DNA of 64,000 nt, taken from the NCBI GenBank assembly GCA_016699105.1, contig CP064960.1, positions 593,034-657,033 on the forward strand. The letters run 5' to 3'. This document shows, piece after piece, positions 1,899-61,412 of the stretch. The notes under the pieces are model-generated. The model ran no database searches. It was not told where the DNA came from and was given only the letters and a program-made list of their open reading frames with translations. The DNA comes from a bacterium (GTDB taxonomy: Bacteria > Patescibacteriota > Saccharimonadia > UBA4664). Positions within the stretch are counted from its first letter, which is position 1; each line of letters starts with the position of its first letter. A program made the position numbers and the translations under genes.

Positions 1899-2907
1899 AT
1901 GATAATGAACCAATTGAGGCATGGGTTTGGCAGGAAAGTGGTGGTCGTATGGGCTGCCGTGTTGATGTTGGGTGCGCCTGCACCAGTATTGGGTGTAGCA
2001 GCAACCAACCCGGCCAATAGCGGACAAGGCTTGGAAATTTCGCCACCCGTTGTCGAATTGCAGGCTGATCCTGGTCAGACCGTGACAACAGCCATATCTA
2101 TTCGTAATGTCACTAAAGGTGCTTTGCTTGTGAAGGCCAAAACTGACGATTTTGGGGCGGGTGATGACGAATCAGGACAACCGCAGCTACTCTTAGATAC
2201 CGAAGGTCAAAGCCGATTTTCGCTGAAATATTGGGTGAGTTCGGTGACTGATTTGACGCTGGCAGCCGGTGAACTCAAGAAGAACCAGATTACGATCAAA
2301 GTGCCTAAAAATGCTGAACCGGGTGGGCACTTTGGAGTGGTGCGCTTTACGGCAGTTCCGCCTGAGCTTGAAGGCACCGGTGTGGCATTATCAGCTAGTG
2401 TGGGCACATTGATACTGGTGCGGGTCGGTGGAAATATCACAGACAAATTATCACTCGAAGAATTTTCCACCGGACGATGGAAAGGTGAGGGTCGGTCGTG
2501 ACTAAAACCGGATTCTTTGAGTACGGTCCTGTAGCTTTTGTAGTGAGACTCAAGAATGAAGGCTCAGTTCACGAGAAGCCTAAAGGTACTATCACGGTTA
2601 GCAATACGTTTGGTAAGCAAAGTAGGAAGTATCAACGTCAACGATAAAGGGCGGCAATGTATTGCCTGATAGTGTGCGACGATTTGAACAAGAACTGGCC
2701 AGCAAGCGTCTGTTTGGACGCTATGTGGCCAAGCTTGATTTGAGCTATGCGACTGATCAAAAACTGACGGCTACCAAGACGTTTTGGGTGATTCCGTGGA
2801 AACTGATTGCACTTGGTCTGATTGGTCTTGTGGCAATGGTGTGGATCGCGCGCCTGGCGATCAAACGATACAACCGGCATATTATCAATCAAGCCCGCCG
2901 CCGTTAG
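1899..2907 (+). pseudogene. DUF916-like cell-surface protein (signal peptide, N-terminal beta-rich domain, C-terminal TM anchor), split over three reading frames by two frameshifts (~2470-2505 and ~2626-2644; the second lies at a tcaacgtcaacg tandem hexamer, not a homopolymer)
   Basis: Piece 1 (1899..2501): signal peptide plus ISPPVVELQADPGQTVTTAISIRNVTKGALLVKAKTDDF, resembling the DUF916 N-terminal pattern. Piece 2 (frame +2, 2501..2647): GFFEYGPVAFVVRLKNEGSVHEKPKGTITVSN. Piece 3 (2662..2907, TTG start): C-terminal TM helix IPWKLIALGLIGLVAMVWIARLAIKRYNRH. The combined ~336 aa length fits CscA/DUF916 proteins. The frameshifts are probably sequencing artifacts. Confidence 0.45.
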
Positions 2908-2908
2908 G

Positions 2909-3850
2909 ATGCCGGTTATGGCTTTCTTAGCTCATCACCACAGTGGCCGGGTGAGGCCTCATCATCATACATCGTACGCTGCATTGACGTTTATGATTAT
3001 CTTGACTGGTGTGCTCGTGGCAGCTTCAGGATGGGCGGCGCAAGCGGCGACACCGGCAGTTAACCCGCAGAGTGGATCGGTCGGGTTATCGGGCGTCGTG
3101 CGCGGTCCAGCTCCCAGCACAGCCGCATTGATCTTGGTACCTACAAGCGGAACGAGTACGAGTGTAGTCCCAATTACCGTACGCGGAACCTGTCCGGCAA
3201 ATACCTTTGTGAGTGTTATGAAAAATGGGGTTTTTGGTGGAGCCACGACGTGCCAAGAAGATGGCACATTTAGCCTGTTGGTGGACTTGTTTGCCGGCCG
3301 TAATGAGTTGGTCGCCAAAGTGAGCGATGCACTTGGTCAGTATGGCCCCGATTCGGCGACGGTTGTGATTACCTACAATGCGCCAAATGTGGGAGCGGGT
3401 AGTAGCGCGTCGCAGCGACAATTATTTTTGAATATGGCGGTGACAGTTGTTGGTGGTAATCCGGAAGAAGTTATCCGGCGGACAATTTCAATAGTAGGCG
3501 GATCGGCTCCGTATGCAGTTAGTTGGGACTACGGCGATGGAGAAACGGGCTTGGTGACAGCGACAAGTGAAGGTGATGTCACTAATGGTCATGCCTACGA
3601 TCGGCCTGGTTATTACACTGTGGTCGTAAAGGTGACTGATAGCCGGGGAAACTCAGCTTACTTACAGTTCATCACAATCGTTAACGGCGCGTTAACGACA
3701 GCAGGAGGGGCTTCTGCGACTAATACGGACACAGCAGGTTATGTACAATTAGCTTGGCCGCTTTTGGGATTTGCATTGTTGTTGGTTTTAGCATTCTGGC
3801 TGGGGGAGTGGCGGGAATCACGTAAGTTGGCTGCCGCGGCAGCTGTATAA
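2909..3850 (+). CDS. PKD-domain surface protein with C-terminal transmembrane anchor
   Basis: PKD signature VSWDYGDGETG...VTNGHAYDRPGYYTVVVKVTDSRGNSA. Hydrophobic C-terminus AWPLLGFALLLVLAFWLGEW. The ATG at 2909 lies right after the previous gene's stop; the ORF-track start at 2822 overlaps that gene. Confidence 0.6.
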   Translation: MPVMAFLAHHHSGRVRPHHHTSYAALTFMIILTGVLVAASGWAAQAATPAVNPQSGSVGLSGVVRGPAPSTAALILVPTSGTSTSVVPITVRGTCPANTFVSVMKNGVFGGATTCQEDGTFSLLVDLFAGRNELVAKVSDALGQYGPDSATVVITYNAPNVGAGSSASQRQLFLNMAVTVVGGNPEEVIRRTISIVGGSAPYAVSWDYGDGETGLVTATSEGDVTNGHAYDRPGYYTVVVKVTDSRGNSAYLQFITIVNGALTTAGGASATNTDTAGYVQLAWPLLGFALLLVLAFWLGEWRESRKLAAAAAV

Positions 3851-3954
3851 CCGTTAATACGTGTATGTAGACAAATACATACAAGGCGAAAAAATCATTT
3901 AACTACGCATGCTTCCAGTATAGGTAGGACTTAATTTGGTGGCAATAAATCTGG

Positions 3955-5744: not shown

Positions 5745-6538
5745 TTATAAAACTTTAACTTGATCGAGTGGCAAGAGTCGCAATACGGCATTGCCGATAA
5801 TGTAGCTTGAAGGTAGTTGACCCCATTCGCGGGAGTCAAATGAGGCGCCGGGTATGCGGTTGTCTCCGACCACGAAGACATTGCCTTTTTGGACGGTTTC
5901 ATCAACATTTCCCTGAGTACTTGTATCAGTACTTTCGTAGCTCGTATCGGGATCATAACCATCGGGGTGCTTGTCGTTGTAGACGGTTATTTTACCTTCT
6001 TTGACAACTACTCGGTCGCCAGGGACACCAATAACGCGTTTGACAAAAACTTCACTGGGTTTCTTGGGATAATGGAAGACGATTATCTGCCCAGCTTTGG
6101 GGATGTATGCGCTATCTTTATTGAAAGTTCTTTGGATCAAAGATGAAGTGTAGCCAATCTTGGAAACAATTAAATAATCGGCGTCGTGCAAGGTAGTGGA
6201 CATGCTACTTCCCATGACGTGATAGGCTTGAAAGACAAAAAATGAAGGACAAACACGACAGCCATCGGGAACAAGAACCATGAGGCGATAATGCCCATGA
6301 CATGCCAAAATTTACCAGCAACGTTGGTTAGTGTCCCAGACGCCGTTTCGACATCGGTGGTAGCCTGAATACCAGGACCTTGTACATCAGAAAGCGTTTG
6401 AGCCAGCATTGGTGACATGTCACTCGATGACGGAGTGGGTGGCGCCGGACGGACGGGTGCTGGGCTACCCTGGGCCGGTATAATTAAGCCGTCAGGACCG
6501 ACAACAGGCTTGCGAGATGGGTTAGTAGGTGAATCCAT
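5745..6538 (-). CDS. lepB: Signal peptidase I (LepB) with a 1-nt frameshift at an A6/T6 homopolymer (~6236-6241) separating the N-terminal TM segment from the catalytic domain
   Basis: Catalytic frame has FFVFQAYHVMGSSMSTTLHD (S box), VIGVPGDRV, GDNRIPGASFDSREWG (box E). The upstream TM helix GIIASWFLFPMAVVFVLHF sits in the adjacent frame (the 3' end of ORF 6170..6943). Adding one T restores ...VLHFFVFQAYHVMGSSM, matching B. subtilis SipS topology. The N-terminal Pro-rich extension and exact start are uncertain. Confidence 0.75.
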
Positions 6539-6597
6539 ATACAGTATGAGTATAGGGGGGTAGCCGGGGAGCACAAGGGTGGTTATACTAGTAGGTA

Positions 6598-8139
6598 ATG
6601 GATACGTTTCATGTGAATCGGCGGCGGCAGCTCGATGGCCCCCAACCAAGAAACCGCCTGGTACGACCTGTACCCGACGCGCCTGCCCCTGATAGAGTGG
6701 TGGCTTCGACGGTTGAGCTATCTGAAAATGAATCAACTTTGCCGGTTGTTGACGACAAGCTGTTTGAGTATCGCCGCCGACATAAGCCAAAGAAGCTCCA
6801 AGGCAAAGGCTGGAAAATCGCCAAATGGGTAGTGCTTGTGTTGCTTGTCGGAGGCTTGGTGGCTGGTGGTTGGTTTGGTTGGCGCGCCTGGCAAGCGACC
6901 AAAAACATCTTCGGAAATGGCGGCGGTTCAGGAGCTTTGGCATTACAAGACTCCTTTGATCTGACCCAACTCAAAGGTGAGGGGGACGGTCGCGTCAATA
7001 TTTTGCTTTTGGGCATTGGTGGTGAAGGCCACGAAGGGCCAAACTTATCCGATACCATCATGGTTGTTAGTATTGATCCCAAAACGAAAAATACAGCAAT
7101 GTTGTCGATCCCGCGTGACTTGTATGTGAAATTACCCGGTGTCGGTCAATATGGCACTCAATATGGCAAAGTAAATGCAGCGAACGTTTATGGCGGTGCC
7201 GAATATGCGGCCAAAGTAATTCAGACCGTTATTGGAGTGCCACTACACTACTACGTCGTGATGGACTTTTCCGGATTTAAACAAGCGGTTGACGCGGTCG
7301 GCGGCATTGATATTGATGTTCCTGAGGCTATTAATGATCCCGATTATCCATGTGACAATGGACGATCGGTCTGCGGGTTTAAGTTGGCAGCCGGAAAACA
7401 ACATATGAATGGCACGATCGCGCTCAAGTATGCCCGATCTCGCAAGAGCACCAGTGATTTTGACCGGGCAGCCCGGCAACAGCAGGTGATTGGGGCGCTG
7501 CGCGATAAGAGTTTGCAGCTATCAACACTCACGAATCCCGTTAAATTGATCGGCTTGATTGAAGCTCTTGGTACCCATGTGAAATCAAATTTGCAGACCA
7601 ATGAGATTAAAAAATTGGCGGCTATTGCAAAAGATGTCGATATGTCGAAAGTCAGCAAAGAAGTGCTCGATACAGATAGGCCGGAATCCTTGCTTCAGGG
7701 GGGAGTAAATATCATACCTGAGGCAGGTTATATCGAGGTACCAAAGTTGGGCACATTTAGCTACGGTGATATTCATGACTACGTTAAAAATATTTTTGCT
7801 GACGGATATATCCTGGAAGAAAATGCAATTGTTGAAGTCCAAAATGGATCTGGAATTCCAGGTTTGGCGGGGGCTGTCACGAAAAGCTTAAAAAGTGCAC
7901 ATTATAATCTGACAAATGCTTCGAATGCTAATGACTATTTCGCTAAAACGGTGATATATGATTACTCTGGTGGCAAGATGCCTTATACGCTAAACTATCT
8001 CGAGAATCGATTTAATGTAAAAGCGCAGAGTGCATCGGTTCCGGTAATGTCACCGGCTGCTGACGGCTCGATTCCGTCGGCACCTCAAATAAGGATTATA
8101 CTTGGCAGTGACTATTCTACAAACGCGTCTACAAATTAG
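6598..8139 (+). CDS. LCP family (LytR-CpsA-Psr) cell-envelope polymer transferase with C-terminal LytR_C domain
   Basis: N-terminal TM (WVVLVLLVGGLVAGGWFGW). Core RVNILLLGIGGEG...SDTIMVVSIDPKTKNTAMLSIPRDLYV...VIGVPLHYYVVMDFSGFKQAVDAVGGIDIDV. Confidence 0.8.
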   Translation: MDTFHVNRRRQLDGPQPRNRLVRPVPDAPAPDRVVASTVELSENESTLPVVDDKLFEYRRRHKPKKLQGKGWKIAKWVVLVLLVGGLVAGGWFGWRAWQATKNIFGNGGGSGALALQDSFDLTQLKGEGDGRVNILLLGIGGEGHEGPNLSDTIMVVSIDPKTKNTAMLSIPRDLYVKLPGVGQYGTQYGKVNAANVYGGAEYAAKVIQTVIGVPLHYYVVMDFSGFKQAVDAVGGIDIDVPEAINDPDYPCDNGRSVCGFKLAAGKQHMNGTIALKYARSRKSTSDFDRAARQQQVIGALRDKSLQLSTLTNPVKLIGLIEALGTHVKSNLQTNEIKKLAAIAKDVDMSKVSKEVLDTDRPESLLQGGVNIIPEAGYIEVPKLGTFSYGDIHDYVKNIFADGYILEENAIVEVQNGSGIPGLAGAVTKSLKSAHYNLTNASNANDYFAKTVIYDYSGGKMPYTLNYLENRFNVKAQSASVPVMSPAADGSIPSAPQIRIILGSDYSTNASTN

Positions 8140-8152
8140 GAACCAACATATT

Positions 8153-8689
8153 GTGCAGATTGCATGGGCGTTGGCTGTCGGTGGTGTTGTCTTGGTACTT
8201 GCTCCCAAACAAGGATGGTGGTGGTTAGCGTTAGCCATAGTAACGGGAATTGAACTATTAGCCGCTTGGGGTAGAAGACAGATAGTATCGCAGTTAATGA
8301 TACCGGTGGTAATGGCCGCGTGTGTCGTCCTTGTGATGACACTTGTACCGCGATTAGCTAGTCAGATATCGTTAGCGTTAGTATATATTGTTTGGCGATG
8401 GTGGTGGTCAACAGGTGAAGCTGGTCGGGCAAATTTACCAAATTTGTTAGTGTTACAGACTATGATTAGTTTAGCTGTTTTTTTAATGGCAGTAGTATGG
8501 CGTGTTCCTTCATGGTTTGCAGAATTGCTAATGTGGGGACTTTCATACACTACGGTACTAACAGTTATGAGTACTCGAAGGGAACAAAGTGCAAGATTGC
8601 TAGCAGCTAGTTGGGCACTTATTGTTACTCAGCTGACTTGGTTGCTCCAGATATGGTTGTTTACCTACACTGTTCAAGGGGGTATGTGA
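8153..8689 (+). CDS. Polytopic membrane protein, unknown function
   Basis: Four or five hydrophobic helices, Trp-rich. GTG start at 8153 preceded by AGGAA (10-nt spacing). The ORF-track start at 8102 overlaps the LCP gene. Confidence 0.45.
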   Translation: MQIAWALAVGGVVLVLAPKQGWWWLALAIVTGIELLAAWGRRQIVSQLMIPVVMAACVVLVMTLVPRLASQISLALVYIVWRWWWSTGEAGRANLPNLLVLQTMISLAVFLMAVVWRVPSWFAELLMWGLSYTTVLTVMSTRREQSARLLAASWALIVTQLTWLLQIWLFTYTVQGGM

Positions 8690-8862
8690 TGATACCTCAA
8701 GGAGTATTGGTTATAACGGCAATGGGATATTGTTTTGGCTCAATTTACATGTCGGCTCGAGCAGGCAGCTTGAGTCGCGGACGGTTGATGGAATTTCTCG
8801 CAATTGGGATCGTTATAATTATCATGGTTGTCTCAGGTACTTCTTGGAAAGGTGCCATATAA
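8689..8862 (+). CDS. Small (57-aa) membrane protein, unknown function
   Basis: ATG overlaps the upstream stop (ATGTGATG). AGGGGG RBS. Two hydrophobic helices. Confidence 0.35.
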   Translation: MIPQGVLVITAMGYCFGSIYMSARAGSLSRGRLMEFLAIGIVIIIMVVSGTSWKGAI

Positions 8863-11771: not shown

Positions 11772-12847
11772 TGGCCGGCTTGTTCGAGTTTGAGTCGTAA
11801 GTCTTCAGCCTGTAAAGCATCGAGCATGTCCGCAATATTGCCGAGCATATAACCGGGCAAACCGTGTTGGGTACGGCCGATACGATGGTCTGTGACCCGG
11901 TCTTGAGGGTAGTTGTAGGTGCGGATTTTTTCACTGCGGTCACCGGTGCCAATTTGTGACAAGCGGGCTTCGCGGCCAGCGCGCTCGGCTTCTTCACGTT
12001 GGATAGCCAGTAGCCGGGAGCGTAAGACATTCATGGCTTTGAGCTTATTTTTGAGCTGTGACTTTTCGTCTTGGCAGGTGACTACAAGACCCGAGGGGAG
12101 GTGAGTGATGCGGACCGCAGAATCGGTGGTGTTAACGCTTTGACCGCCGTGTCCGGAGCTACGATAGACGTCAATGCGCAAGTCGGCATCATTGATCTCG
12201 ATATCGGTTTCTTCGGCTTCGGCTAACACGGCCATTGTCACAGTCGAGGTGTGGATGCGACCGCCGGATTCGGTTTCGGGGACACGTTGCACGCGATGAA
12301 CACCGGATTCATATTTGAGCAGACCGTAGGCGCCCGCACCTTTGACTTCAAAAATAATTTCTTTGTAACCACCTACATCACTGGGTGATTCGCTGATAAG
12401 TTCGATACGCCAGCCGGGTTTGGTCTCGACAAACCGGTTATACATGCGATAGAGTTCACCAGCAAACAATGAAGCTTCGTCGCCGCCCGCACCAGCGCGG
12501 ATTTCAATAATGGCGGTTTTGGCGTCGGCGGGATCTTTGGGGACCAAGGCAATGCGCAGTAAATCGTTGATACGATTCAACTCTTCTTCAAATTCCGGTA
12601 TTTCGGCTTTAGCCAGTTCACCAAGTTCTGGATCGGTGGCCATTTCGTGAGACTGGGCTAAATGATCAGCTGTCTGGGCGCGTTGGTCATAAAGGGCCAA
12701 GAGGGGAGCTATTTCGGCCTGGCGTTTTGCCAATGTAATCATCTGAGGAGTACCCAAAATCGCCGGCTCGGTCAGCTGGGTGGCTAGACTGGCGGCTTCG
12801 GCTCGAAATTTAGCTTCGGTGGGATCGGTTGATGGATTCATAACCAT
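11768..12847 (-). CDS. prfA: Peptide chain release factor 1
   Basis: GGQ motif ([23 protein letters not shown]) and RF1-type P-x-T tripeptide region ([14 protein letters not shown]). Confidence 0.9.
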
Positions 12848-12909
12848 ATATTTATATCATAATTTGGTGGTAATGCCGAGGTTTTGGCAGGAGGTATTAA
12901 GGGTTGGGT

Positions 12910-12943
12910 GGAGCTGGCTGGACTTGGTAGTCCAGCCAGCTCC
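12910..12943. repeat. Perfect 15-bp inverted repeat / stem-loop (ggagctggctggact-tggt-agtccagccagctcc), probable terminator/insulator at the left edge of the GC-rich cassette
   Basis: Seen directly. Lies immediately 3' of the stop of the 12950..14071 gene on the minus strand. No U-tract on either side. Confidence 0.6.
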
Positions 12944-12949
12944 GGATCG

Positions 12950-14071
12950 TTACTTCTTGATGCGCTGGCGGATCTCGATGATTCTGGCGAATTTATCCGA
13001 AATGGTGAAACGGAGATCACCAATCTCGATGGTGCGCCTGAAGAAGAACTGCAGGTTAGTGCTCGTTCCCCAGCTACCACTATTGGGATCAGCCATGGGT
13101 CGTCCGGCATATCCGCGCCGTTCCTGCCAGGTGCTAATCAACGGTGATCGCATTTCGGCACCATCTGACTTGAAGCGAATGCCGAGACTGGGCACGATTG
13201 CGTAGCGGTCGACTTCCAGCTCGATCAACATGGGCTCGACAGTCCAGCCTTCGGCGTCAACCTCAGGTTCTGGCGCATCAGCTAGCTGGATGCTGGCTTG
13301 GATGTGGTCTTGGTTGATCTCAGTCGCCTGGAAGGTACCTCGGATACCGGGCGCTAGCTCGTAAGCGACGCCAGGATCGAACCTGATGTAGCTATGCTGC
13401 CAGCCCTGGTTGGGTGACAGCTGCTCCATCTCGATGAGGTTCCGGTTTTCCCTTCCGCAACTCCTGATCCGCACGTCAGAGGTTACATATACCCACTCAG
13501 TGCCGATAGCTATCGACTGCGGCGGCTGCCACTTGGTGATCGGAATCGGTGCTTCGAACGTGCCTCGCCAGAATGTGAAACCACCACCTTGCGACGAAAT
13601 TCGAAGCTTGAGCGTCGGATCTGCCAGAGTGAACTCCATTTCGTTGACTTCCGGGTATTTCACGCAGTTTTGGCAGCTGTATCCGTGATGCGGGTTGGCA
13701 CAGACTGTGAATCCTTGGAGAGTTGTACCGCAATTGTAGGTGTTATTGACGATGTGCCGTTTGTACGTGACACCGTCGCGAACGACAGTGTTGTGGTAGC
13801 CATGTTCGTACTTGCCCCAAACTGGTTCAACAGCCATGGCAAACCGGTAGTCGGCGCGGCAACGGAATTCCCACCGGTGGTAGGTAGCGCCCGGCACCGT
13901 GTAGGTTCGCGCCTGGACGCCAGGAGCGATGTCGATCCATGCACCCTGCGAATCGGTGAAGAGTCGCGGGGTGTTCCACTCACGCTGTGGATGCAACTGA
14001 GTGGCGCGGCGAACGAGCAGGCCGAAGCCGAACGAAAATACTTCATCTTGCATCTCAACGCCGTCTACCAC
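12950..14071 (-). CDS. Hypothetical protein (373 aa), no recognisable domain; part of a GC-rich two-gene cassette
   Basis: Long ORF with strong GC3 bias (codon usage distinct from flanking core genes). No signal peptide or TM. Contains HHGYSCQNC and several Cys/His residues. Overlapping opposite-strand ORFs are attributed to high GC. Confidence 0.55.
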   Translation of the reverse strand: MVDGVEMQDEVFSFGFGLLVRRATQLHPQREWNTPRLFTDSQGAWIDIAPGVQARTYTVPGATYHRWEFRCRADYRFAMAVEPVWGKYEHGYHNTVVRDGVTYKRHIVNNTYNCGTTLQGFTVCANPHHGYSCQNCVKYPEVNEMEFTLADPTLKLRISSQGGGFTFWRGTFEAPIPITKWQPPQSIAIGTEWVYVTSDVRIRSCGRENRNLIEMEQLSPNQGWQHSYIRFDPGVAYELAPGIRGTFQATEINQDHIQASIQLADAPEPEVDAEGWTVEPMLIELEVDRYAIVPSLGIRFKSDGAEMRSPLISTWQERRGYAGRPMADPNSGSWGTSTNLQFFFRRTIEIGDLRFTISDKFARIIEIRQRIKK

Positions 14072-14138
14072 AATTTGCCAGTGGTGATCAGCTCCAGGGA
14101 AGTAGACACAGCTTCGTTCGGTGGGCGCTGGCTTGCGC

Positions 14139-14633
14139 CTAGCCTTTGAATGGTTCGCCCCAACTCAGCTCTTCGCTGGGCTGGTTGTCTTCCGGCCGGC
14201 GCCACTGGATGTACACCTGGCGCTGAGAGCCGTCGACAGCATCGGTGACGATAATGCGAACGTCTCGGTCGATGGCCTGCCAGTTGTCACTCGGCATGAA
14301 TGTGCGGGGCGAGTGATACCGGCAGTCGTAGGTGTGCTGGTGAGTGCGGTTGCACTGACGAGCGGTGCGCACTTCGACGTTGCCGTCGGGAGTGGTGCGC
14401 AACACAGCACTGGCGGAGTAGTTGGCGTCCAGCGGACGCCAAGGTCGTCCGAACCAGCGGGCGAAGGGGTCGTCCCAGTCGGTGGTGGGCTCGATGAGCG
14501 CACGCAGGGCGGGCACGACCAGATCTTGGGTGCCAGGCACGTTAAGGGCAGAAATTTCACGTGGTGACAAGCCACTCATTCCTCGCAGCAGTTCTAGTAA
14601 GGATCCGAATCTGGCGTCGAAGAGTCCGGTCAT
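14139..14633 (-). CDS. Hypothetical protein (164 aa), first gene of the GC-rich cassette
   Basis: ATG at 14633 with AAAGGG about 10 nt upstream. GC3-rich. No recognisable motifs. Lies 67 nt upstream of the 373-aa gene on the same strand. Confidence 0.5.
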   Translation of the reverse strand: MTGLFDARFGSLLELLRGMSGLSPREISALNVPGTQDLVVPALRALIEPTTDWDDPFARWFGRPWRPLDANYSASAVLRTTPDGNVEVRTARQCNRTHQHTYDCRYHSPRTFMPSDNWQAIDRDVRIIVTDAVDGSQRQVYIQWRRPEDNQPSEELSWGEPFKG

Positions 14634-14689
14634 GATGACGGAACCCTTTCTTGAGTCTACCGTCGGCTGGCCACATTGGCTGACCTTTA

Positions 14690-14740
14690 GGAAACGGCTG
14701 GCTGGCTATTTGCAATGCAAATTACCAATCAGCCGTTTCC
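14690..14740 (-). promoter_or_regulatory. Nested palindrome (11-bp arms ggaaacggctg/cagccgtttcc enclosing the 7-1-7 palindrome ATTTGCAaTGCAAAT) in the 5' region of the cassette operon; candidate operator or 5'-UTR structure
   Basis: Seen in sequence. Lies between the predicted promoter (14780-14808) and the cassette start codon at 14633. Confidence 0.45.
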
Positions 14741-14779
14741 TATATACGCATATCTAACATATCAAGAAACAACTGCTAT

Positions 14780-14808
14780 ACCATATCATATTGTGACTAA
14801 TAAGTCAA
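14780..14808 (-). promoter_or_regulatory. Sigma70-type promoter for the cassette: TTGACT-N17-TATGGT on the minus strand
   Basis: Minus-strand read: TTGACTtattagtcacaatatgaTATGGT. -35 is at 14803-14808, -10 at 14780-14785, with a 17-nt spacer. Confidence 0.45.
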
Positions 14809-14840
14809 TTTTGATGTGGGTGTTTGCAGGCTGAACAATC

Positions 14841-14868
14841 AAAAAAGCCCTGGCGGGCTTTTTAAGAT
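14841..14868 (-). terminator. Rho-independent terminator downstream of rpmE (bidirectional: AAAAAAGCCCtggcGGGCTTTTT)
   Basis: GC stem flanked by an A-run and a T-run, immediately 3' of the rpmE stop at 14882. Confidence 0.7.
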
Positions 14869-14881
14869 GATAATTTGGAGA

Positions 14882-15175: not shown

Positions 15176-15258
15176 AACTTGATGATTGTATCTAATAAAT
15201 GTGTATAAGTCAATGGGTTGCCCCCGGGATGTCACGAGGGACATCCCGGGGGAGGGGA

Positions 15259-15933: not shown

Positions 15934-16045
15934 GTCGAGTCCTTTCTCAAGGATAGTTGAAGGATTTGCATGTCAATTGAACGGCTAGATCGACGTTATA
16001 ATAGTATTAGTATCTTACAAATATTAAATTCTGGCCGTTAATTAC

Positions 16046-40467: not shown

Positions 40468-40528
40468 AGCAATGGCACGATCATCTATTACCAGAACGCT
40501 ATGAAGCTGCCCTAAAAGTAGCGTTTGC

Positions 40529-42104: not shown

Positions 42105-42131
42105 AGCGAACCTGACGGTAAATATCACAAT

Positions 42132-48412: not shown

Positions 48413-49493
48413 AGGAGTAGAACTGCTCTATATCGGTCAAGCCGATAGTATGGAAGAGCGGATTGTGCGGGCTAAAGGCCTAGCATTTGCGCCCGTGCGC
48501 GCTGGAAAGTTTCGGCGCCGGCATTTCGATTCGGGTGTGGCTAAACTACTCAATCACCAGACACTTGGCCCAAATAGTCGTGACGCTTTCCGAACTGTCG
48601 CTGGTGTACATGACGCCTGGAATGTCATACGACGTTTTAAACCAGATGTAACTTTTATCAAAGGCGGTTTTGTGGGAGTACCAGTGGGACTGGCGGCTCG
48701 TATGTTGGGAGTTCCATATATTATTCATGAATCCGATGTATCACCAGGGTTGGCAAATCGGTTGCTTGGTCGTTGGGCGGCGGCTATCGCCACTGGCTTC
48801 CCAGCTAAATATTATAGTCAATGGCAGGACAAACACGTGGAATTTGTGGGAAACCCGGTGCGACCGGAAATTATGGCGGCTCATCGACTCGCTGGTCTAG
48901 CCAAATTCAAACTTGATGAGAGTCAGCCAGTACTATTGATCACTGGTGGCTCGCAAGGTTCTCGGGAAATCAACGAGGCGGTTTTAGCCGGGCTCGATGA
49001 ATTACTTGAATTGGCACAGATCATTCACGTGACCGGCGAATCGGAATTTGAACGGGTGCAATTTAATCTGAACCGCCAAGCAAGTCAGCCCGATCCGGCA
49101 CGTTATAAAGTATCAGCCTTCTTAAATGCTGAGATGCCGCTGGCACTGGCAGCAGCAGATGTGGTAGTCTGTCGGGCTGGCATGAATACCGTGGCCGAAC
49201 TTGCAGTACTGGAGAAACCGACCATACTAATACCGAACACAGATATGGCAGCGCATCAAATGGCCAACGCGCGGGTGTTGGCGCGGGCAGGGGCAGCCAG
49301 AGTATTGTCAGGCGATTCGGTGACAGCCGCCAAGCTGGTAGGGGAGGTAAGACTCATTCTAAGTGACGAAGCTGAGCAACAGCGTTTAGCCAAGGCCATT
49401 GGTAGCTTCGCCAGTCGACAGGCAGCCGAGGATTTAGCTCAACTTATCCTTAAAATTGGTGCAGCTTCGACCAAAGAGGGGAGTGGGGTATGA
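48327..49493 (+). CDS. murG: UDP-GlcNAc:lipid I N-acetylglucosaminyltransferase MurG
   Basis: N-terminus MKVALSGGGSAGHIMPALAV and C-terminal GT-B domain. GAGAGGG RBS. Confidence 0.9.
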   Translation: MKVALSGGGSAGHIMPALAVCDALQSLHKGVELLYIGQADSMEERIVRAKGLAFAPVRAGKFRRRHFDSGVAKLLNHQTLGPNSRDAFRTVAGVHDAWNVIRRFKPDVTFIKGGFVGVPVGLAARMLGVPYIIHESDVSPGLANRLLGRWAAAIATGFPAKYYSQWQDKHVEFVGNPVRPEIMAAHRLAGLAKFKLDESQPVLLITGGSQGSREINEAVLAGLDELLELAQIIHVTGESEFERVQFNLNRQASQPDPARYKVSAFLNAEMPLALAAADVVVCRAGMNTVAELAVLEKPTILIPNTDMAAHQMANARVLARAGAARVLSGDSVTAAKLVGEVRLILSDEAEQQRLAKAIGSFASRQAAEDLAQLILKIGAASTKEGSGV

Positions 49494-50307
49494 ACGGTCA
49501 ACGCCGGGTCGTGCGTACTGCTCGCGGTGTCTATGGCCGGTCGGTGCCGCTTGCGTCTCCATCCAAACGTCGGGTGCGGTTCGAGTTTGGCTGGACAGTC
49601 AGCCAACGCTTGCGCCGGTTAGCAATTTTACTGGTCGTGGCTGGAGTCTTAGCTGGTGCTGGTATCTGGCTGGTATCGGTACGATCAGTCCAGGTGCGAG
49701 CCGCTGATCAGCAGGATACAATTACCAAGGACATTTGGCAGCATTTAAATGACGGTTGGTGGCCAGCCAATCTCGTGACATTGGATGAAGCGGCATTGGA
49801 ATCAGCTATTCGCGAAGTCCATCCTGTGGTGAAGGATCTCCAATTTAAGCGCCAATGGCCCAGTACCTTGGTGGTAACGGCTGAGCTAAAATCACCGCAA
49901 CTTGTCTGGTATTCGGAAGTCAACTAGCAGTACTCGATGCTGATGGCACAGCCATTGGCGGAATGAGCGCGGCTGATGCCAAATTGCCTGTCGTCTATGA
50001 TGGCAGCAATCTGCCAGTTGAGCCAGGACAGCAAGTAGTGCGGGCCCAGTTTGTGACCTATATTCATGAACTGACGGCAGGGTTAGCTAGTAGGGGAGTT
50101 GGTATTAACAAATTGCGGGTAGGCCAGACGACACTGGATTTGACGGTTGAAACCAATAAGACGTACCAACTCGTTTTCGATACGTCACGTCTAGCAGGGG
50201 AGGGGCTTAGGGATTATGATGCCGTAATTAAATCAGCGACCAACTTGAAGAAACCTATCAATGAATACATTGATTTACGCATTAGTGGTAAGGCGTACTA
50301 TAAGTAG
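49490..50307 (+). CDS. ftsQ: Cell division protein FtsQ/DivIB (POTRA domain), split by a single-base deletion (~49922)
   Basis: N-terminal TM (LAILLVVAGVLAGAGIWLV), POTRA-like region, then C-terminal beta domain in the second ORF. Adding one A joins WYSEV|KLAVLDADGTAIGG. Confidence 0.65.
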
Positions 50308-50689
50308 TAGGCGACCAAAAAGAGTACTCCTCTCTCCCCTTGTCCAGTTCGGTTTTTGTACTTATGAAAATGGAGGTTTAGGCACATAAGTGCGCATTAA
50401 TTCGCTCATCACTGACTAAAAGTTAAGCGAAACTAGATAAAAGACGCCAAAAATGACTAAAAAAGTTCGTAAATAATCAACAGATATTTAAGTGATTAAA
50501 CGGTACTTTTGAGCGCTTTGTAAGCGAGTTGTCGCAAAATATACATTGTGCGACGTTATGCTATCTCACGTTTTCGGGTACGAGTATTGGTCTTTTACCA
50601 TTATTAGACCTGAACTAACCCTCATTTAAGCTTATGTTGGCGTTCTGTTGTGGTGATTCTACCTACTTTGGTGTGGTGGGTATTTGACC

Positions 50690-53400
50690 CTATCGTCGGA
50701 AACTAACTGCCTCACCTGCGGCTAGCTGGGACTTGTCGGTGGTGTTTCCGGAATGGGGGAGTCTGGCTGGTCGGGCGTCGGGTCGTTGACGAGGACGCGC
50801 GGCGTTGGCGTTGGTGTATGAGTTATCTCCCCTGCTCTGGTTTGATCTCGGGGCGTAACTTGGTCGGTTTGACGATGAGGGGGCATTGCTCGTACTGGGA
50901 TTGCGGAGTGACCCGATAAATTCTTTGTTCGTATTTTGTTCCCGAGCTTCGGCTGCTAATTCTTCGGGATCAGCAGTTCGTTGTCTGATATCCTGTTCGA
51001 CTTCAAGCCGTGGTGTAGCTATGAGCTGGCGGTTACCATCAATTATTTGAGCTGTTAAGTCAGCTTCAGGATCGGGCATGCGGAGCGTTGTTGCTGAGAA
51101 TGCTACTGCTTTTTCGCCATTGATAATCATATTAATGAAGATGCTTTGATTATGTAGCCGAGTTAAGTCAGCTGCTTCAAAAACGGGCTCGAAATACTTA
51201 CCCAAAATCGCTGAATCACCAGGCCCAACACGGAAGCTAATCATGGTACCAACGTTTCCGAAGACCGCGTCACGGACGACTTCTGGCATTTGAGCTACAT
51301 ATTGATTGGCTACCGTTAAGTTGAGTCCATACTTGCGAGCTTCAGATAAAATGACGGCAAATGAATCGGTGGCAAAGTTTTGGAATTCGTCGACGTAGAG
51401 ATAGAAGGGTCGCCGGTCTTCCATGGGGACATCGGCCCGGCTCATGGCTGCAAGCTGTATCTTAGTAACCATGAGGGCGCCCAAAATGGCGGCGTTATCC
51501 TCCCTACTTGCCCACGCGAGAGGTTTACAAGCAAGATCTTGCCTTCATCCATGATGTCTGATATTGAAGGCACTTTTTGCTGGCCGATGATGTTACGTAC
51601 CAAGGGGTTCGCCACAAAGGCACCGACTTTGTTTAAGATAGGTGCGACTGCTTCTGAGGCAAATTTTTCATTCCAGGACGCAAATTCGATGGTCCAAAAG
51701 TTCTTGACGATAGGGTCTTTGATCTCTCGGATGACGCGTTTGCGGAAGGTTTTTCGGTAAGCATTCGCGGGATATCGAGCATGGTGGCACCGTCGTAATC
51801 AATGAGCGCCAACAAGGTGTACCGGAGGATGTATTCAAGCCGCGGTCCCCAAGAATCAAACATTCGTTTGAGTACGCCGACTAATTCGGACGATACGTGA
51901 TCGCGCATAGCGGGATCGGTAACTTCCATTGGGTTAAAGGCTATAGGAAAGTCGCGGTCAGCGGGATTGAGATAAACCACATCTTTGACGCGATGAGCAG
52001 GAATATAACGCATGATGTCTGTAACAAAATCACCGTGTGGATCGACAATGGCAAAGCCAACATCGTGATAGATATCAGACAGTGTCAACAATTGAAGTAG
52101 GAATGATTTTCCTGCGCCCGTTTGACCAACAATATACATATGCCGTCCGCGGTCGCGGCGTTTGATGCCAAATTTGAGTCGTTGACCGCGGAAATTGGTC
52201 ATCCCAAATAGACTTATTTCTAGGGCTTCGGCAGATCCTTCCACAGGAACACTCGACGGCGGCTCACTAGTCTTAGCGGTTGTCCAGACGATATTGGGGT
52301 AGCCACAGTTTTGTGAGGTAGATGGTATAACGATGCTAATTCTTCGATATTGAGGATATAGCCGGGATCATAAAACAATCGCGACCGAAAGTCTTCCAGA
52401 AAATCGAGCGAATCATAGGTCTTGGCTACGGCAAAACCATTGAGGTTTGTGGTATTAAACTGTTTGAAGCCACCAACGATGGCTTGGAGTCGCTGCCGGG
52501 CAACAATTTCGTCAGGACCTAAGATGGCGATCCGAATCTTGACTTGATAACCAAGCTTGGTTATTTTTCTTCAATAGCCTTGATGACGCCTTGTTGACCT
52601 GGGCTGAGTTCAACCTTGGCTTCGGCGGTTTTAGTATCGGAGGTAGGAGGTTCATATAAGGCTCGGATGAAGTTGGATAGCACATAAATGGGTACTTGTA
52701 ACAAGCCATCGGTGAGTTTGGACAGCCAATCTTTTTTGGGTCCACCTTTGATAGTTTCAATGTAGTCTTTGCCCTGATCTTGCCAAGAGTCGTCGATGGG
52801 ACGGGCGAGAATCTGAATCCAAACCTCTTCACCGCTCGCTTCCAACTTGGCTAGTACGCCCGTAATGCCGGCTAGCGGGTCAACTTCAAACGACGCAAAC
52901 GTTTTAACGGGTAGTACCGTGTCTTTAGTTAATCCAAGCTCGGCGCCGTAAATAGCCCGTTCCCCTACTTCGGTTAGCGAGTAGTCATCAGCGTTTTCCT
53001 TGATTTGGACTGTCGGGTATTGGGCATAAATCTGACTTTCTAGGAAATCTTTAAGGTGGCGTGGTACCCACACGTAAAACTGGATTGAACTATAATGAGC
53101 AACAATTTCGAAACTGACGTGTTCTTGGGCTTGACTCCCCTTCAGATCACTATCTGGTCGCAAAATACCGTGTAGTGATGCAAACATCTGCTCAGCTGAT
53201 AATTCTTTCTTCTCATTGTCTTTAGGGACATCAATACGCAAGAGGATACTATCGTAAAGGTCTGGCTTGGCGGCAGATGTGGTACTTGACGAAACGCGAT
53301 TTCTATTTTGAAGTATTAGATAACCAAAAACGGCCACGACTATAACCCAGCCGTAGAACTTGAATAATAATAATCCAATCACCTGAAAAATCAGGGTCAA
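50690..53400 (-). CDS. Type IV secretion coupling protein-like ATPase (VirD4/TraG/TraD family, with TraG-D_C-type C-terminal region) carrying an N-terminal membrane domain; fragmented by about four single-base frameshifts (~51502-51504, ~51750-51754, ~52270-52300, ~52564-52568)
   Basis: Walker A MYIVGQTGAGKS and VDPHGDF. Walker B / TraG-D_C block PFYLYVDEFQNF...SEARKYGLNLTVANQ. Homopolymer corrections give a continuous reading (MLTEK|TFRKRVIREIKDPIVKNF...; ...NLSRGQVG|EDNAAILGALMV...). The upstream 279-aa TM-containing ORF (52561..53400) joins in frame if an A5 run is A6, and the downstream frame has no start codon of its own. Family assignment is moderate; the fused architecture is inference. 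Confidence 0.6.
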
Positions 53401-55452: not shown

Positions 55453-56451
55453 TTAACTAAAATAAGCTTGCATAATCAAGCGGGCAGTTTTGTCGGGATG
55501 ATGGCGGATGAGGGTTCGCGGAATAATCTGGTCGGCGGCAGTCAGTTTGGGGATGCTATCGGCGATGATATCACCACCAATGGGTGTAAAGTGTTGTTTG
55601 GCGAGGGTAGTTTGGTCAAAACCAACAGCATATTCCCCTGCTCGAGCATACTTATCAAGTAATTTTTGGCTCGGTTGATGTTGGTTGTAAATGACAAAGT
55701 CGAGGACCGGTTTACCGATAAAACGTTCAATTTCTGTGGCGTAGTCTTGTACCTGAAAATCGTCGGTTTGGCCAGGTTTAGTGACGAGGTTTGAAACGTA
55801 GACAATGCGAGCATTACTATTTGACAACACATCTCCTAACCCAGGTACTACTAGTGTTGGAGCCAAAGAAGCATATAAATTGCCAGGGGCTATGACGACT
55901 AAATCTGCTGTCTCAATAGCGGTTTTGGCTTCAGGATTCAACCGCGAGGTGGGCTCGAGGCTCAGTTGCGGAGGTTGACTACGGTCTATCTTGGCACTTT
56001 CGACTGTATGTTGGCCAATCACGGTAGAACCATCGGGCTGGGTCAAAACGAGCTTGCTATTAGTCAGTGTGACCGGAACGACCCGGCCGGTGATATTGAG
56101 TACCTTACTCGCAGTCCGAACTGCCTGAGCGAAATTGCCAGTTGTTTTTTCGAGAGCAGTCAAAAAGAGGTTGCCAAACGAATGACCGCCAAACGTGCCT
56201 TCGGCGAAGCGGTAGTTGAATAGGTCACGCATGATTTGATCAGACTCAGACAATGCCACTAAACATTGTCGGATATCGCCAGGCGGTAATACGCCTAGCT
56301 CATCCCTGAGACTTCCAGTTGAGCCGCCATCGTCAGACATATTGACGATGGCCGTGATGTCTCGGACATAGTTTTTAAGGCCGGTGAGTACCGTGAAGCT
56401 CCCGGTACCTCCGCCGATAACAACAACTTTGGGACCTTGGTTATGAGTCAT
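55453..56451 (-). CDS. YvcK/CofD-like gluconeogenesis factor family protein (UPF0052)
   Basis: VVIGGGTGSFTVL and GSLRDELGVLPPGDIRQCLVAL. Confidence 0.75.
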   Translation of the reverse strand: MTHNQGPKVVVIGGGTGSFTVLTGLKNYVRDITAIVNMSDDGGSTGSLRDELGVLPPGDIRQCLVALSESDQIMRDLFNYRFAEGTFGGHSFGNLFLTALEKTTGNFAQAVRTASKVLNITGRVVPVTLTNSKLVLTQPDGSTVIGQHTVESAKIDRSQPPQLSLEPTSRLNPEAKTAIETADLVVIAPGNLYASLAPTLVVPGLGDVLSNSNARIVYVSNLVTKPGQTDDFQVQDYATEIERFIGKPVLDFVIYNQHQPSQKLLDKYARAGEYAVGFDQTTLAKQHFTPIGGDIIADSIPKLTAADQIIPRTLIRHHPDKTARLIMQAYFS

Positions 56452-57843
56452 GCAGTAAGTTCCTTTTGACAGAGGTCGGCAAGATTTTTAATACTAATGC
56501 GTTGTTGTTCCATGGTGTCACGGTGGCGTACGGTGACAGTGTGGTCGGTAAGCGTATCAAAATCAATAACCCACACAAGGGGTGCCAATTTCATCTTGAC
56601 GGCGATAGCGTTTGCCAATATTACCGTTATCGTCGTAAACGACATGGCCAAATTGTTGTTTTAATTGTCGATAGACAGTTTGAGCTTGCTCAACCAGCTC
56701 GGATTTGTTACGTAGGAGAGGTGATACAGCGATTTTGATTGGTGCAAGTTCCGGTTTAAACTTGAGGACTACCCTGGTATCTCCCTCCCCGATGGTTTCC
56801 TCATGGTAAGCAGCAGCTAATACAGCGAGAAAATGTCGGTCGAGGCCAAATGTTGGCTCGAGGACGTGCGGAATATACTTTTCGCCAGAGGTTGGGTCAG
56901 TATAGGACAAATCGACTCCGGAGGCTTTGGTGTGATTGGATAAATCAAAATCGGTGCGATAAGCGATAGCGCCAAGTTCTTTGACGCCAAAGGGAAAAGC
57001 ATACTCAAGATCGATGCTTTTCTTGGAATAATGAGCCCTGTCGGCGGCGGGAACATCAAGTTCATGGATATCGGCTTTAGCCAGACCAAGCCGCTCAAAC
57101 CAGGTGTAATACAGTTCCATGAGTCGTTTAAACTCCCCTTCCCATGAGTCGGGCTTAATGAAATATTCAAATTCCATAATTTCGAGTTCACGGACGCGAA
57201 AAATGAAGTCTTTGGCGGTTATTTCATTGCGGAAGTTCTTGCCTATTTGGGCTAACCCAAATGGTAGCCTGGGGTGAAGGCTATCGAGGACATTTTTGAA
57301 GTTTACGAACATTCCTTGAGCAGTCTCAGGTCGTAAATAGACGCGAGCGGAGGTGTCGTCGACCGGTCCGATCTGCGTTTTGAACATCATATTAAACGTG
57401 CGCACATTGCTTAAGGCATTTCCATCAGGGCTTTTAAGCTTCAATTCCTTAATTTTGGCATCCATTTGAGGCACTGTTAAGCTAGCGGCGTCATCAACGC
57501 CGTTATCTTCAAGTAAATGGTCGGCGCGGAAGCGTTTATTGGTAACTAAATCTTCCACTAATGGATCTTCGAATCCAGCGCCGGTATGGCCACTGGCTTC
57601 CCAGACGCGCGCGTTCATCAGGATGGCTGTATCTAGACCGAACATATTGTCTTGTTCAGTCACGAAATGCTTCCACCATAAGTCTTTGATATTGTTTTTG
57701 AGCAGGACACCATATGGGCCATAGTCCCAGGTGCCGCCCAAGCCACCATAAATCTCTGAACCTTGGAATATAAATCCTCGCCGCTTGGTTAGTGCTACAA
57801 GGGTTTCGAGGGTGACATGTGAGGTCTGTTTCATGGTGTGCAT
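56448..57843 (-). CDS. glyQS: Glycyl-tRNA synthetase (alpha2, eukaryote/archaeal-like GlyQS), split by a frameshift at a G/C homopolymer (~56579-56582)
   Basis: Class II core in ORF 56563..57843. The C-terminal anticodon-binding part (IDFDTLTDHTVTVRHRDTMEQQRI) is in ORF 56448..56651. The junction DEIGTP|LVWVIDFD parallels human DEIGVAFGVTIDFD. Confidence 0.85.
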
Positions 57844-58608: not shown

Positions 58609-59022
58609 TTATTTATTGGTTGACGGCGGTTGGTTCTGCTGCCGGTGGTTGCCCATCACTTTCACGGCTTTGGCAACGACTTCATCGGGTGTGTGATGAC
58701 TCTTAATTAGGTAATCATTGACGCCGAGAGCTTTGGCTAGCTCTTGATTCATGTCTACCTCGGCCTGGCCCAAGTTGGTTAGCAGAATGACGGGAATCTG
58801 GCGTAAATTAGGTTGCTTCTTGATCTCTTTGAGTACATGAAAACCGTTGAGTTTGGGCATAAGAATATCGAGTAAGATGAGATCCGGTTCAAACTCTTCG
58901 AGCACTTTAAGGCAGTCTTCACCGTTAGTGGCTACCTTGACGTCGTGTCCTTCGAGTTCAAATTTAGCTTGGTACATTTCTACCAGGATTGTATCGTCTT
59001 CTACTAGCAAAATCTTGGCCAT
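58609..59022 (-). CDS. Single-domain response regulator (CheY-like receiver only)
   Basis: MAKILLVEDD...LLDILMPKLNG...LLTNLGQ (phospho-acceptor Asp context), K (LIKSH). No output domain. Confidence 0.8.
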   Translation of the reverse strand: MAKILLVEDDTILVEMYQAKFELEGHDVKVATNGEDCLKVLEEFEPDLILLDILMPKLNGFHVLKEIKKQPNLRQIPVILLTNLGQAEVDMNQELAKALGVNDYLIKSHHTPDEVVAKAVKVMGNHRQQNQPPSTNK

Positions 59023-59065
59023 GAATCCTCCTAAAGCGTCCCTGTGCACTTCTAGTGTAGCGGAC

Positions 59066-61356
59066 TTAGCCTATCAAGGGAAGTTGTTTTGCAATCGGTA
59101 TCGTAAACGAGAATTTGCTTCCCTTACCTTCTGCTGATGTTGCCCAAATGCGTCCATTATGACTCTCGACTAAGCTTTTGACGATATACAATCCTAAACC
59201 CGTTCCGCCAGCCTGGACACTCAAAGGGTTGTAGATTCGGCCAAATTTTGTAAATAGACGATTGATTTGAGATTTGTTGATTCCCACACCGTGGTCAGAA
59301 ATAGTTGTAAGGAGATTATCCCCTGGACTTTGCACGTAATATCAACTTCAGTACCGTTGGGTGAATATTTGATGGCGTTGTCAATGAGATTGAGTATTAT
59401 TTGATGAAGTCTGGTTTCATCTGCTAAAACGAGTGGTAATCGGCTACGTCGACGAATATTGATGAGTACTTGCTTAGCAGCGCCTTTGGCTGCAAGTTCG
59501 GCGACAACTTCATTGACGACAGCGTCCATTGAGATTGGCGCAATGGTGAGGCTGATTTTGCCAGATTCGATATATGTTGCATCCATAAGATCTTCGACCA
59601 AATCGATCATACGTTGATTGCTTTGGTAGACTCGGCTCAAATAATGAAATTGTTTGGCACTGAGTTCGCCGAAGTCTTGCTTAAGCGTCATTGATAGAAA
59701 TCCTTTGATCGCAGTGAGCGGCGTGCGTAGCTCGTGAGATACTATTGAAATAAAATCTGATTTAATTTCTTCTACTTCACGGTCTTTGGTGGTATCACGG
59801 ATAATAGCTATGCCGGAGGTGACTACATCCGAATCGTCAAAAATGGGCGAATAGCTAATTTCAGTCCAAATGCGGTTACCAAGTCGATTTTCGATAAGCT
59901 GTTCACTATTTGTGATAGTCGTGCCTGTTTTTAGTACTTGCTCAAGGGTTGGTATGCCGGCGTTGGCTGTTTCTGGGCCGACTGTTTTGATCACCTTTCC
60001 GAATGCCTTGCCAATGGCATCGGTTGCTTGATATCCAGTAATAGTTGTCGATGCCGGGTTGAAGCCAACAATGGTCCCCTTCTGGTCGAAAATAACTATA
60101 CCTTCTTCGGTAAATCGAAAGACTGCTTCCCAGCGTTCACGACGGGCATTGACGTCGTTGTACAGGGTGGCATTCTCGCAAATGACGGCTAAACGTGTGG
60201 CTGCTAAACGTAATAGCCGTAAGTCATGGTCATCATAGGTATGCTCACGACTAACGATAATTACACCTAAGCTTTTGGAATGATGAATAATTGGCAGCGC
60301 AAGACTTGCTTTTGAAGTATCGATGGTTATGATCGGTTTACGACCAGCGAAAGCTTGAGTAACTACATGGTGCTGGTTCAACGAAAATGTACTTGGTAAA
60401 TGTGAAGTTTGATTGTGGTTTGACGCTAGCTGTAGTAGTTGTTGGTTTGGCTCATAAATGTAAATTCCGACTGATGTTGAATCAAGTAAATTGGCGATTT
60501 TTTGGACATACTTTTGATAGATACTATCTAGATTGAAACCTACTATAGCTGAAAGTTCGGCCAGCTGTGACAACTCACGCAAGTGTCGTTGCGCTTTCGT
60601 AGCCATTGCTCCCGCTTCGATGGTTTTGTCGGTGAGGGCAGTGACATCTCTAGCGGCTGCCATCGCGCCAATAACTTCATTATTTATGACGACTGGGCCA
60701 AATGACACTTGGATATGGCGTCCGGTGTCGATTATATCCAGATACAGAACTGATCGTTGTCCGAGCATGACTCGTTCTAGTATTTCCCGAACTTCAGTGT
60801 CAAAGGCAACTTGATGTGCCGAAGTTGTTCGCGTAAAAATAGGTAATCCTACAGGTGACTGATTGATGTCAAATACAATTTGCCATTCTGTATTCGCCTC
60901 GACGACTATACCTTGTTTATCAACCATAACTACGCCATCTTGGAGGTGGTTTATCATTGTTGTCAGTTTTAACTTTTCCAAGTAAAGCGGCGTAATATCG
61001 TGAACAGCAATGACTACAGTTTTTTGTTGCTCATCAGAACTCATGTATTGGCTCATTTGGGCTTCATAGTGTAAACCTGGTGATTGTGTTTGAGAAAAAG
61101 AACAACTACTTACTTGGCCCTTGAACGCTAGGTCTATACATTTTTCGGCCGCTTTGATATCGATTTTTAGATCGGCATTTTGCGAGATACTAGCGAAATC
61201 TGGGTGTTTTCTTAGTCCAGAAGTAGTTAGATCCCATATCTGGCAGGCAGCTGGATTGGCATAAACAACTTGTTTGTGAACATCAACGATCAGTATGCCG
61301 TCGCGAAGCGTACTGGCAAGGGATTGATCGGACAAATTAAGCTTGTTTTTAGCCAT
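59066..61356 (-). CDS. Sensor histidine kinase with PAS/GAF-type sensory domains, split by a single-base deletion in a G/C-run (59310-59313)
   Basis: H-box SHELRTPLTAIKGF and N-box LNLIDNAIKYSP. The G1/G2 boxes (DHGVGI, GGTGLGLYIVKSLVESHNG) are in the downstream ORF. Adding one G gives KVQGDNLLTTISDHGVGI. Confidence 0.8.
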
Positions 61357-61412
61357 TAGCCACCTTCCTCCTCTTACCCTAGCATCTGGCGGCTGCTTAA
61401 CTCAAGATTCGA

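Follow-up and report, generated by a model that had tools for sequence, protein, structure and literature searches.

Reductive genomes, such as those of Mycobacterium leprae and of recent endosymbionts, harbor true pseudogenes with many frameshifted open reading frames (ORFs), often at short repeats. A gene that is out of frame at a homopolymer can also still give protein, as in prfB, dnaX and the poly(A) tracts of endosymbionts. The genomes obtained from activated sludge by MinION sequencing showed the same problem as the DNA studied here, and it was remedied by frameshift correction (10.1101/2020.03.12.974238, PMC7966762); a passage of another report states that homopolymer indels need polishing (PMC9262707). 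We have analyzed a 64,000-nucleotide (nt) stretch of contig CP064960.1 (positions 593,034 to 657,033; assembly GCA_016699105.1, a Saccharimonadia bacterium), hereafter the window, in which many genes appear split into adjacent ORFs. They include secA, glyQS, lepB, ftsI, ftsW and mrdA, which are single-copy, indispensable genes. Judging from sequence comparisons, the broken genes almost certainly reflect indel errors left in the consensus of the deposited assembly, that is, an artefact and not biology. The initial annotation of the window had read them as assembly indel errors rather than pseudogenes, and this is borne out by independent assemblies, by the error profile and by selection. It is an ordinary artefact, rightly diagnosed, and a necessary caveat for any use of the contig.

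Comparison with independent assemblies

As a comparison set for the window, 40 contigs of its species (the relatives), each assembled independently, were taken from ENA (SPAdes and MEGAHIT) and from Logan; they derive from more than 25 different runs or samples. They were retrieved by exact-protein look-up with intact genes of the window (HPF, RF-1, EF-Ts, M20 peptidase and Mur ligase), and further ones by way of SecA P0121, GlyRS P0242 and P0248 and ParB P0249, near-identical proteins that a homology search had brought up. Examples of read sets and assemblies that contain the species are DRR830128-31, SRR10931992-95, SRR10932011-14, SRR5278607/10, SRR6041130/32, ERZ3602258/60, ERZ27275549/50 and ERZ23795167. 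The relatives are colinear with the window at 95-99.97% nucleotide identity and together cover 63,422 of its 64,000 nt, leaving 578 nt uncovered. Lesions were listed from gapped blastn alignments of each relative contig against the window.

This comparison yielded 33 small indels, 26 of them in 15-16 coding genes and 7 intergenic. The coding lesions are 23 deletions and 3 insertions, and the full set comprises 29 deletions against 4 insertions. Between 1 and 14 relatives cover each coding site and none of them supports the version of the window; wherever 2-14 relatives are available, every one disagrees with it. Six coding sites are covered by one relative each (among them 40375, 42261, 44769, 44883 and 22668), and at each of these the restoration of ORF length and of domains provides added support. 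Four multiple alignments, spanning 25.9 kb, contain no indel column among the relatives, despite up to 5% substitutions, and 17 that are private to the window. At 14262-14716, in a divergent stretch, L032 and L034 show paired compensating indels that L029 lacks, and these were dropped as alignment noise.

The indels are given below in order of position, each run being written as its base and length. Fractions count the covering relatives that differ from the window, lengths in amino acids (aa) are those of the whole gene in relatives unless otherwise stated, and intergenic sites carry no strand.

2489-2491, plus: DUF916/WxLIP-like surface protein (1899-2907; 321 aa), window G3, relatives G4, 1-nt deletion (2491), 3/3
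2619-2621, plus: DUF916/WxLIP-like gene, window A3, relatives A2, 1-nt insertion, 5/5
2646-2648, plus: DUF916/WxLIP-like gene, window A3, relatives A2, 1-nt insertion, 5/5
6237-6242, minus: lepB signal peptidase (5745-6538; 264 aa), window A6, relatives A7, 5/5
6566-6569, intergenic between lepB and lytR: window G4, relatives G5, 5/5, outside the gene calls of the relatives
8678-8682, plus: hypothetical membrane protein (8102-8862; 251 aa), window G5, relatives G6 (site 8681), 5/5
14145-14147, minus: 560-aa hypothetical protein (12950-14633), window T3, relatives T2, insertion, 4/4; removal of one T gives 560 aa
14644-14646, intergenic, about 14 nt upstream of the 560-aa gene: one base missing in CCC/TTT, 3/3
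14841-14846, intergenic: window A6, L029 A7, single relative; may be a real polymorphism
22669-22670, minus: C-terminal end of a 246-aa gene (22617-23357), window G2, L029 G3 (site 22668), single relative
29384, plus: mrdA/PBP2 (28473-30554; 661 aa), window G1, relatives G2, 5/5
29967-29971, plus: mrdA, 2-nt deletion (29968), true TTTCGGG or TTGCTGG, window TTTGG, 5/5
35573-35576, plus: secA (35286-37902; 872 aa), window A4, relatives A5, 14/14
35654-35656, plus: secA, T lost (35655), true GGTGTG, window GGGTG, non-homopolymer, 14/14
40375-40376, plus: murL-like gene (39229-40532), window C1, L012 C2, single relative; 434 aa when corrected, as in L012
42262-42266, plus: mraZ (42099-42490), window A5, L012 A6 (site 42261), single relative; 130 aa and one MraZ domain match when corrected
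42624-42808, intergenic between mraZ and rsmH: three indels within 185 nt (extra A at 42624-42628, C lost at 42758-42759, AC lost at 42807), L012 only
44770-44772, plus: ftsI (44345-46091), window A3, L012 A4 (site 44769), single relative; 582 aa with continuous PBP_dimer when corrected
44884-44887, plus: ftsI, window T4, L012 T5 (site 44883), single relative
48124-48127, plus: ftsW (47181-48412; 410 aa), window T4, relatives T5, 2/2
49915-49916, plus: ftsQ (49490-50307; 272 aa), window G2, relatives G3, 3/3
50449-50453, intergenic, between ftsQ and the coupling ATPase gene: window A5, L019 A5, and A6 in each of L017, L020 and L022
51502-51504, minus: T4 coupling-protein-like ATPase (50690-53400; 899-908 aa), window C3, relatives C4, 5/5
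51556-51557, minus: coupling ATPase, 2-nt deletion, GTGT contracted to GT, 5/5
51574-51578, minus: coupling ATPase, window T5, relatives T6, 5/5
51750-51754, minus: coupling ATPase, window T5, relatives T6, 5/5
52296-52299, minus: coupling ATPase, window G4, relatives G5, 5/5
52564-52568, minus: coupling ATPase, window T5, relatives T6, 5/5
56571-56572, minus: glyQS (56448-57843; 465 aa), plus-strand A lost, coding strand TGTGTGTGG to TGTGTGGG, non-homopolymer, 12/12
56579-56582, minus: glyQS, window G4, relatives G5, 12/12
59320-59323, minus: PAS/GAF histidine kinase (59066-61356; 763 aa), window C4, relatives C5, 11/11

The intergenic A-run at 50449-50453 is a natural polymorphism and not specific to the window. 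It is the sole site at which a relative sides with the window, and no other indel was seen between the independent assemblies. At the three mraZ-rsmH intergenic indels, error and real polymorphism are not separable by comparison with L012, which is 98.3% identical there.

Error signature

Losses of single bases concentrate in homopolymers. Eighteen of the 24 fall in true runs of at least 4 nt, where the background is 5.2% of bases (binomial P = 7e-19), and 14 in true runs of at least 5 nt (background 1.8%). The rate of loss per run increases monotonically with run length, being 0.0001, 0.0002, 0.0009, 0.0074, 0.047, 0.10 and 0.14 for lengths 1 to 7, and all four bases are affected, in runs of 1-7 nt. 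About one fifth of the lesions are non-classical, namely 3-4 insertions, three 2-nt losses and two collapses of G-T-G to GG. Successive sites are clustered, since 9 of the 32 gaps between them are shorter than 150 nt when about 2.4 would be expected, which fits patches of locally poor consensus. About 94% of the window is coding and about 6% intergenic; from the latter share, 1.4 intergenic lesions would be expected among the 22 that are supported by at least three relatives, and 1-2 are found. The lesions are unfiltered by selection, unlike the natural variation among the relatives, in which no coding indel was seen.

The lesions at 35654-35656 and 56571-56572 share one feature: in both, a coding-strand T between Gs, next to GG, is lost to give GGG (GGTGTG to GGGTG in secA, and the glyQS change given in the list). 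Such a pattern resembles systematic miscalling of a particular k-mer by the base caller, and might hint at the sequencing platform.

The initial annotation had counted about 18 frameshifts and had described them as single-base, mostly at homopolymer runs, and uniform in direction as under-calls. Multiple lesions are indeed present, although their number is higher, about 26 in coding sequence plus the 7 intergenic ones. Most sites are homopolymers, as stated, but about six lesions lie outside them, and the direction is not uniform, given the three coding insertions (2621, 2648 and 14147) and one intergenic insertion. Neither are all lesions single-base, as three deletions remove 2 nt (29968, 51557 and the intergenic 42807).

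Split genes and their restoration

The fragmentation is also seen in the protein profiles, whose coordinates abut between neighboring fragments. The PBP2 profile TIGR03423 is distributed over mrdA ORFs as 6-229, 230-401 and 400-592, the SecA profile as 2-94 in one ORF and 116 to the end in the next, HATPase_c of the kinase as 2-33 and 35-110, and HGTP_anticodon of glyQS as 1-55 and 51-93. The POTRA and C-terminal domains of FtsQ are on separate ORFs, the ORF at 49963-50307 being only the C-terminal fragment of ftsQ (exact-protein look-up gave no match for it). The C-terminus of FtsW is also on a separate ORF, and TrwB_AAD_bind of the coupling ATPase is divided into 12-163 and 212-316. Reading of the frames at 35200-35900 showed the SecA motif distributed over all three.

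In the relatives these genes are whole, with the lengths given in the list. Twenty-nine corrections (26 deletions and 3 insertions reverted) turn the fragments into ORFs of the lengths called in relatives: SecA 872 aa, MurL 434, MraZ 130, FtsI 582, FtsW 410, FtsQ 272, GlyRS 465, the kinase 763 and the hypothetical protein 560. The coupling ATPase reaches 905 aa after all six corrections. All corrected genes align gap-free with the relatives, and domain matches become continuous, TrwB_AAD_bind being a single stretch at 12-316 and PBP_dimer running from 2 to 177 across both ftsI sites. Eleven contigs encode an intact 872-aa protein with which corrected SecA shares 99.7% identity. At the GlyRS junction, GTPLCVVIDFD is found in 8/8 cluster members, of 465 aa, and the corrected GlyRS shows 99.8% identity with P0242 if one residue missing in a provisional reconstruction is set aside. 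That reconstruction, in which one G was removed (464 aa), was wrong, as relatives show two 1-nt losses (465 aa, GTPLCVV).

All 11 genes that the initial annotation named as split into adjacent ORFs are so, at or near the places it gave. It had proposed to align split ORFs with orthologs, and such alignment finds the relatives whole at every covered coding junction, most of the junctions lying at homopolymers. Three of its run coordinates hold up (A4 at 35573-35576, A5 at 42262-42266 and T4 at 48124-48127). The kinase is split as described, but the run is C4 on the plus strand at 59320-59323 and not at 59310. In secA, a second lesion exists, but it is the loss of a T and not G3 for G4, with the same protein either way; the split of glyQS stands and is now traced to two 1-nt deletions 11 nt apart. 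For the coupling ATPase about four lesions had been proposed and six are found, including the third junction (~52270-52300), which had been left open and is G4 for G5 at 52296-52299. The DUF916-like gene is split by three lesions rather than two. One of its junctions had been placed at a tcaacgtcaacg tandem hexamer, but this hexamer is identical in the closest relative and carries no lesion; the real lesions flank it. The gene list was incomplete, lacking murL (40375), the 251-aa and 560-aa hypothetical proteins and possibly the gene at 22668. The estimate of about 30 mis-annotated fragments was about right, since the 64 kb contain roughly 35 ORF fragments in place of 15-16 real genes.

Origin of the lesions

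The proposed explanation is that the assembly consensus would retain residual base-calling or consensus indels at about 1 per 2 kb. The bulk of them would be single bases dropped from homopolymers, with a chance of being dropped that rises steeply with run length, and a minority would be extra bases in short runs, 2-nt losses and T lost between Gs. The organism itself would have intact genes. Because about 94% of the DNA is coding, almost every error would break a gene, and essential genes would be struck simply in proportion to their length. The cause would lie in the sequencing chemistry or in the polishing of an assembly of long-read, 454 or Ion Torrent type; the source, a deposited metagenome-assembled genome (MAG) whose single contig of 1,322,297 bp the window copies faithfully, suggests long reads.

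Some points weigh against consensus error. The errors were deduced from assemblies of other strains and not from reads of the source sample, and the closest relatives are still 0.03-0.6% substitutions away from the window, none of them being provably the same strain. Several intergenic indels are likewise backed by a single relative. In addition, the coupling ATPase carries 5 single-base losses when 1.24 would be expected from its homopolymer content (P = 0.009, uncorrected).

It could be argued that the lesions are genuine and strain-specific, belonging to a decaying lineage in which replication slippage has produced real frameshifts at homopolymers. Real slippage also favors homopolymers, and therefore the homopolymer link alone does not discriminate between slippage and sequencing error. 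Every relative falls short of 100% identity to the window, and there is an excess of lesions in the coupling ATPase, a dispensable gene. However, such decay would require 26 frameshifts in a 1.3-Mb genome that jointly strike secA, glyQS, lepB, ftsI, ftsW, mrdA and ftsQ, with no paralogous backups seen in the window, and the affected genes are not dispensable by their NCBIfam and Pfam assignments (SecA, GlyRS, LepB, FtsI, FtsW, PBP2, FtsQ). None of the coding lesions is shared by any of the 40 relatives, even at 99.5-99.97% identity. Relaxed selection leaves no signal either, the nonsynonymous share of codon differences between window and relatives being 0.167 in corrected genes as against 0.189 in those that are intact, and it would be odd for independent mutations to group, as these lesions do, by twos and threes within 11-130 nt. 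Pseudogenization is thus highly improbable. Programmed recoding, in which ribosomal frameshifting or transcriptional slippage would rescue the proteins as at the poly(A) tracts of endosymbionts, could be invoked since most sites are homopolymers, and reduced genomes are known to undergo transcriptional slippage at long A/T tracts. Nevertheless, the orthologous sites are in frame in all relatives, and therefore the shift is not conserved. The runs are of only 1-7 nt and of all four bases, with no A/T tract of about 9 nt or more; the shifts required are mixed (+1, -1 and 2 nt); and 35655, 56571 and 29968 are not repeats at all, no slippery motif being common to the sites. The chance that recoding accounts for the lesions is negligible.

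A mixed picture would hold that nearly all lesions are errors and that a few are real differences or phase-variable tracts, located in the coupling ATPase, the DUF916-like gene and the intergenic A-runs. The polymorphism of the A-run at 50449-50453 among natural strains speaks for it, as do the indels at 42624-42808 and 14846, for which only one relative provides the comparison, and the lesion excess in the coupling ATPase. On the other hand, the ATPase lesions are absent from 5/5 relatives and the DUF916-like ones from 3/3 to 5/5, the coupling ATPase is under strong purifying selection (nonsynonymous share 0.08), and error clusters also occur elsewhere, in secA and glyQS. We consider this picture unlikely. 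The excess in the coupling ATPase is probably a patch of poor consensus, although a real strain-specific lesion is harder to exclude in this gene than anywhere else. Only a slim chance is given to the coupling ATPase and the DUF916/WxLIP-like protein being really inactivated, or phase-varied through homopolymer slippage; if they were, this would hint that an episymbiotic bacterium of the candidate phyla radiation can turn a type-IV-like apparatus on and off.

As an observation on its own, the TrwB/DUF87/DUF8128 coupling ATPase (50690-53400, minus strand) holds 6 of the 26 coding lesions within 1.1 kb.

Gene content and layout of the window

According to NCBIfam and Pfam scans of its open frames, the window is a typical bacterial chromosome segment. 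It carries parAB, lepB, lytR, htrA, prfA, rpsB-tsf-frr-uppS-rseP and proS, as well as mreBCD-mrdA, greA, lysS, serS, hpf and secA. The dcw (division and cell wall) cluster is represented by a mur ligase gene, the murL-like gene, mraZ, rsmH, an ftsL-like gene, ftsI, mraY, ftsW, murG and ftsQ. These are accompanied by the TrwB/DUF87 type-IV coupling-protein-like ATPase, a sigma factor, cofD, glyQS, recO, xseAB and the PAS/GAF histidine kinase with a receiver protein. A homology search with repaired SecA matched mainly proteins of 'Candidatus Saccharimonadia'. No tRNA genes and no Rfam family matches were found by a tRNA scan and an Rfam scan of the 64-kb window. GC skew is positive in every 2-kb bin, regardless of gene orientation, and therefore the entire window lies on one replichore. 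The G+C content is 54-55% at 12000-16000 and 46-51% in the rest of the window; the 560-aa protein encoded in that stretch has no Pfam match, is rich in tryptophan, cysteine and histidine, and is conserved in all relatives.

The serS open frame (32870-34925 region) extends about 120 codons further upstream and overlaps the preceding 215-aa gene, which mimics a split gene. A frameshift in serS (33264-34925) was rejected, as relatives have the same natural 32-nt overlap and no indel. The glyQS gene had been sought beside secA, where 33264-34925 is serS; it actually lies at 56448-57843. The response regulator at 58609-59049 gave no match in the exact-protein look-up, probably on account of the GTG start chosen. 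For the murL-like gene (39229-40532), the 434-aa protein of the relatives carries precomputed Pfam matches to MurL_N and MurL_epimerase_C, whereas the corrected protein of the window matched no Pfam family when scanned at E <= 0.001.

The species appears not to be represented among the GTDB species representatives that were searched. They hold 0 exact matches to a 43-mer spanning the secA A-run, whether taken as A4 or as A4 with one further base of any kind, and the best SecA match in a protein-based scan of them has 79% identity (L041). A frameshift-rich MAG may have been excluded from the GTDB species set by quality filters.

Consequences for the use of the contig

The finding is a data-quality caveat only: no inference on pseudogenes, gene content, completeness or metabolism can safely be drawn from the contig before polishing. 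Were the whole 1.32-Mb genome affected at the same rate, it would contain about 600 lesions. The error is already in public protein databases, as the 746-aa protein QQR53207.1 (NCBI 'MAG: ... [bacterium]'), annotated as SecA, is 100% identical to SecA and lacks the first 126 residues; the deposited annotation therefore already holds a truncated SecA. The table of 29 corrections could be applied directly to the contig.

Comparison with known systems

Compared with Mycobacterium leprae and recent endosymbionts, the window differs in that its lesions are private to one assembly and lie in indispensable single-copy genes, without relaxed selection, and are exactly reverted by comparison with conspecifics. 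It also departs from prfB, dnaX and slippage at poly(A) tracts, as it has no conserved shift, no slippery heptamer and no long poly(A), and its shifts are mixed in direction and size. The window resembles under-polished assemblies from long reads (Oxford Nanopore R9, PacBio continuous long reads) or from 454 and Ion Torrent sequencing. It differs from these in the approximately one fifth of its lesions that are not classical homopolymer under-calls; like them, it shows deletion-biased 1-nt indels that rise with homopolymer length and split genes regardless of essentiality, and its lesions are gone in short-read assemblies.

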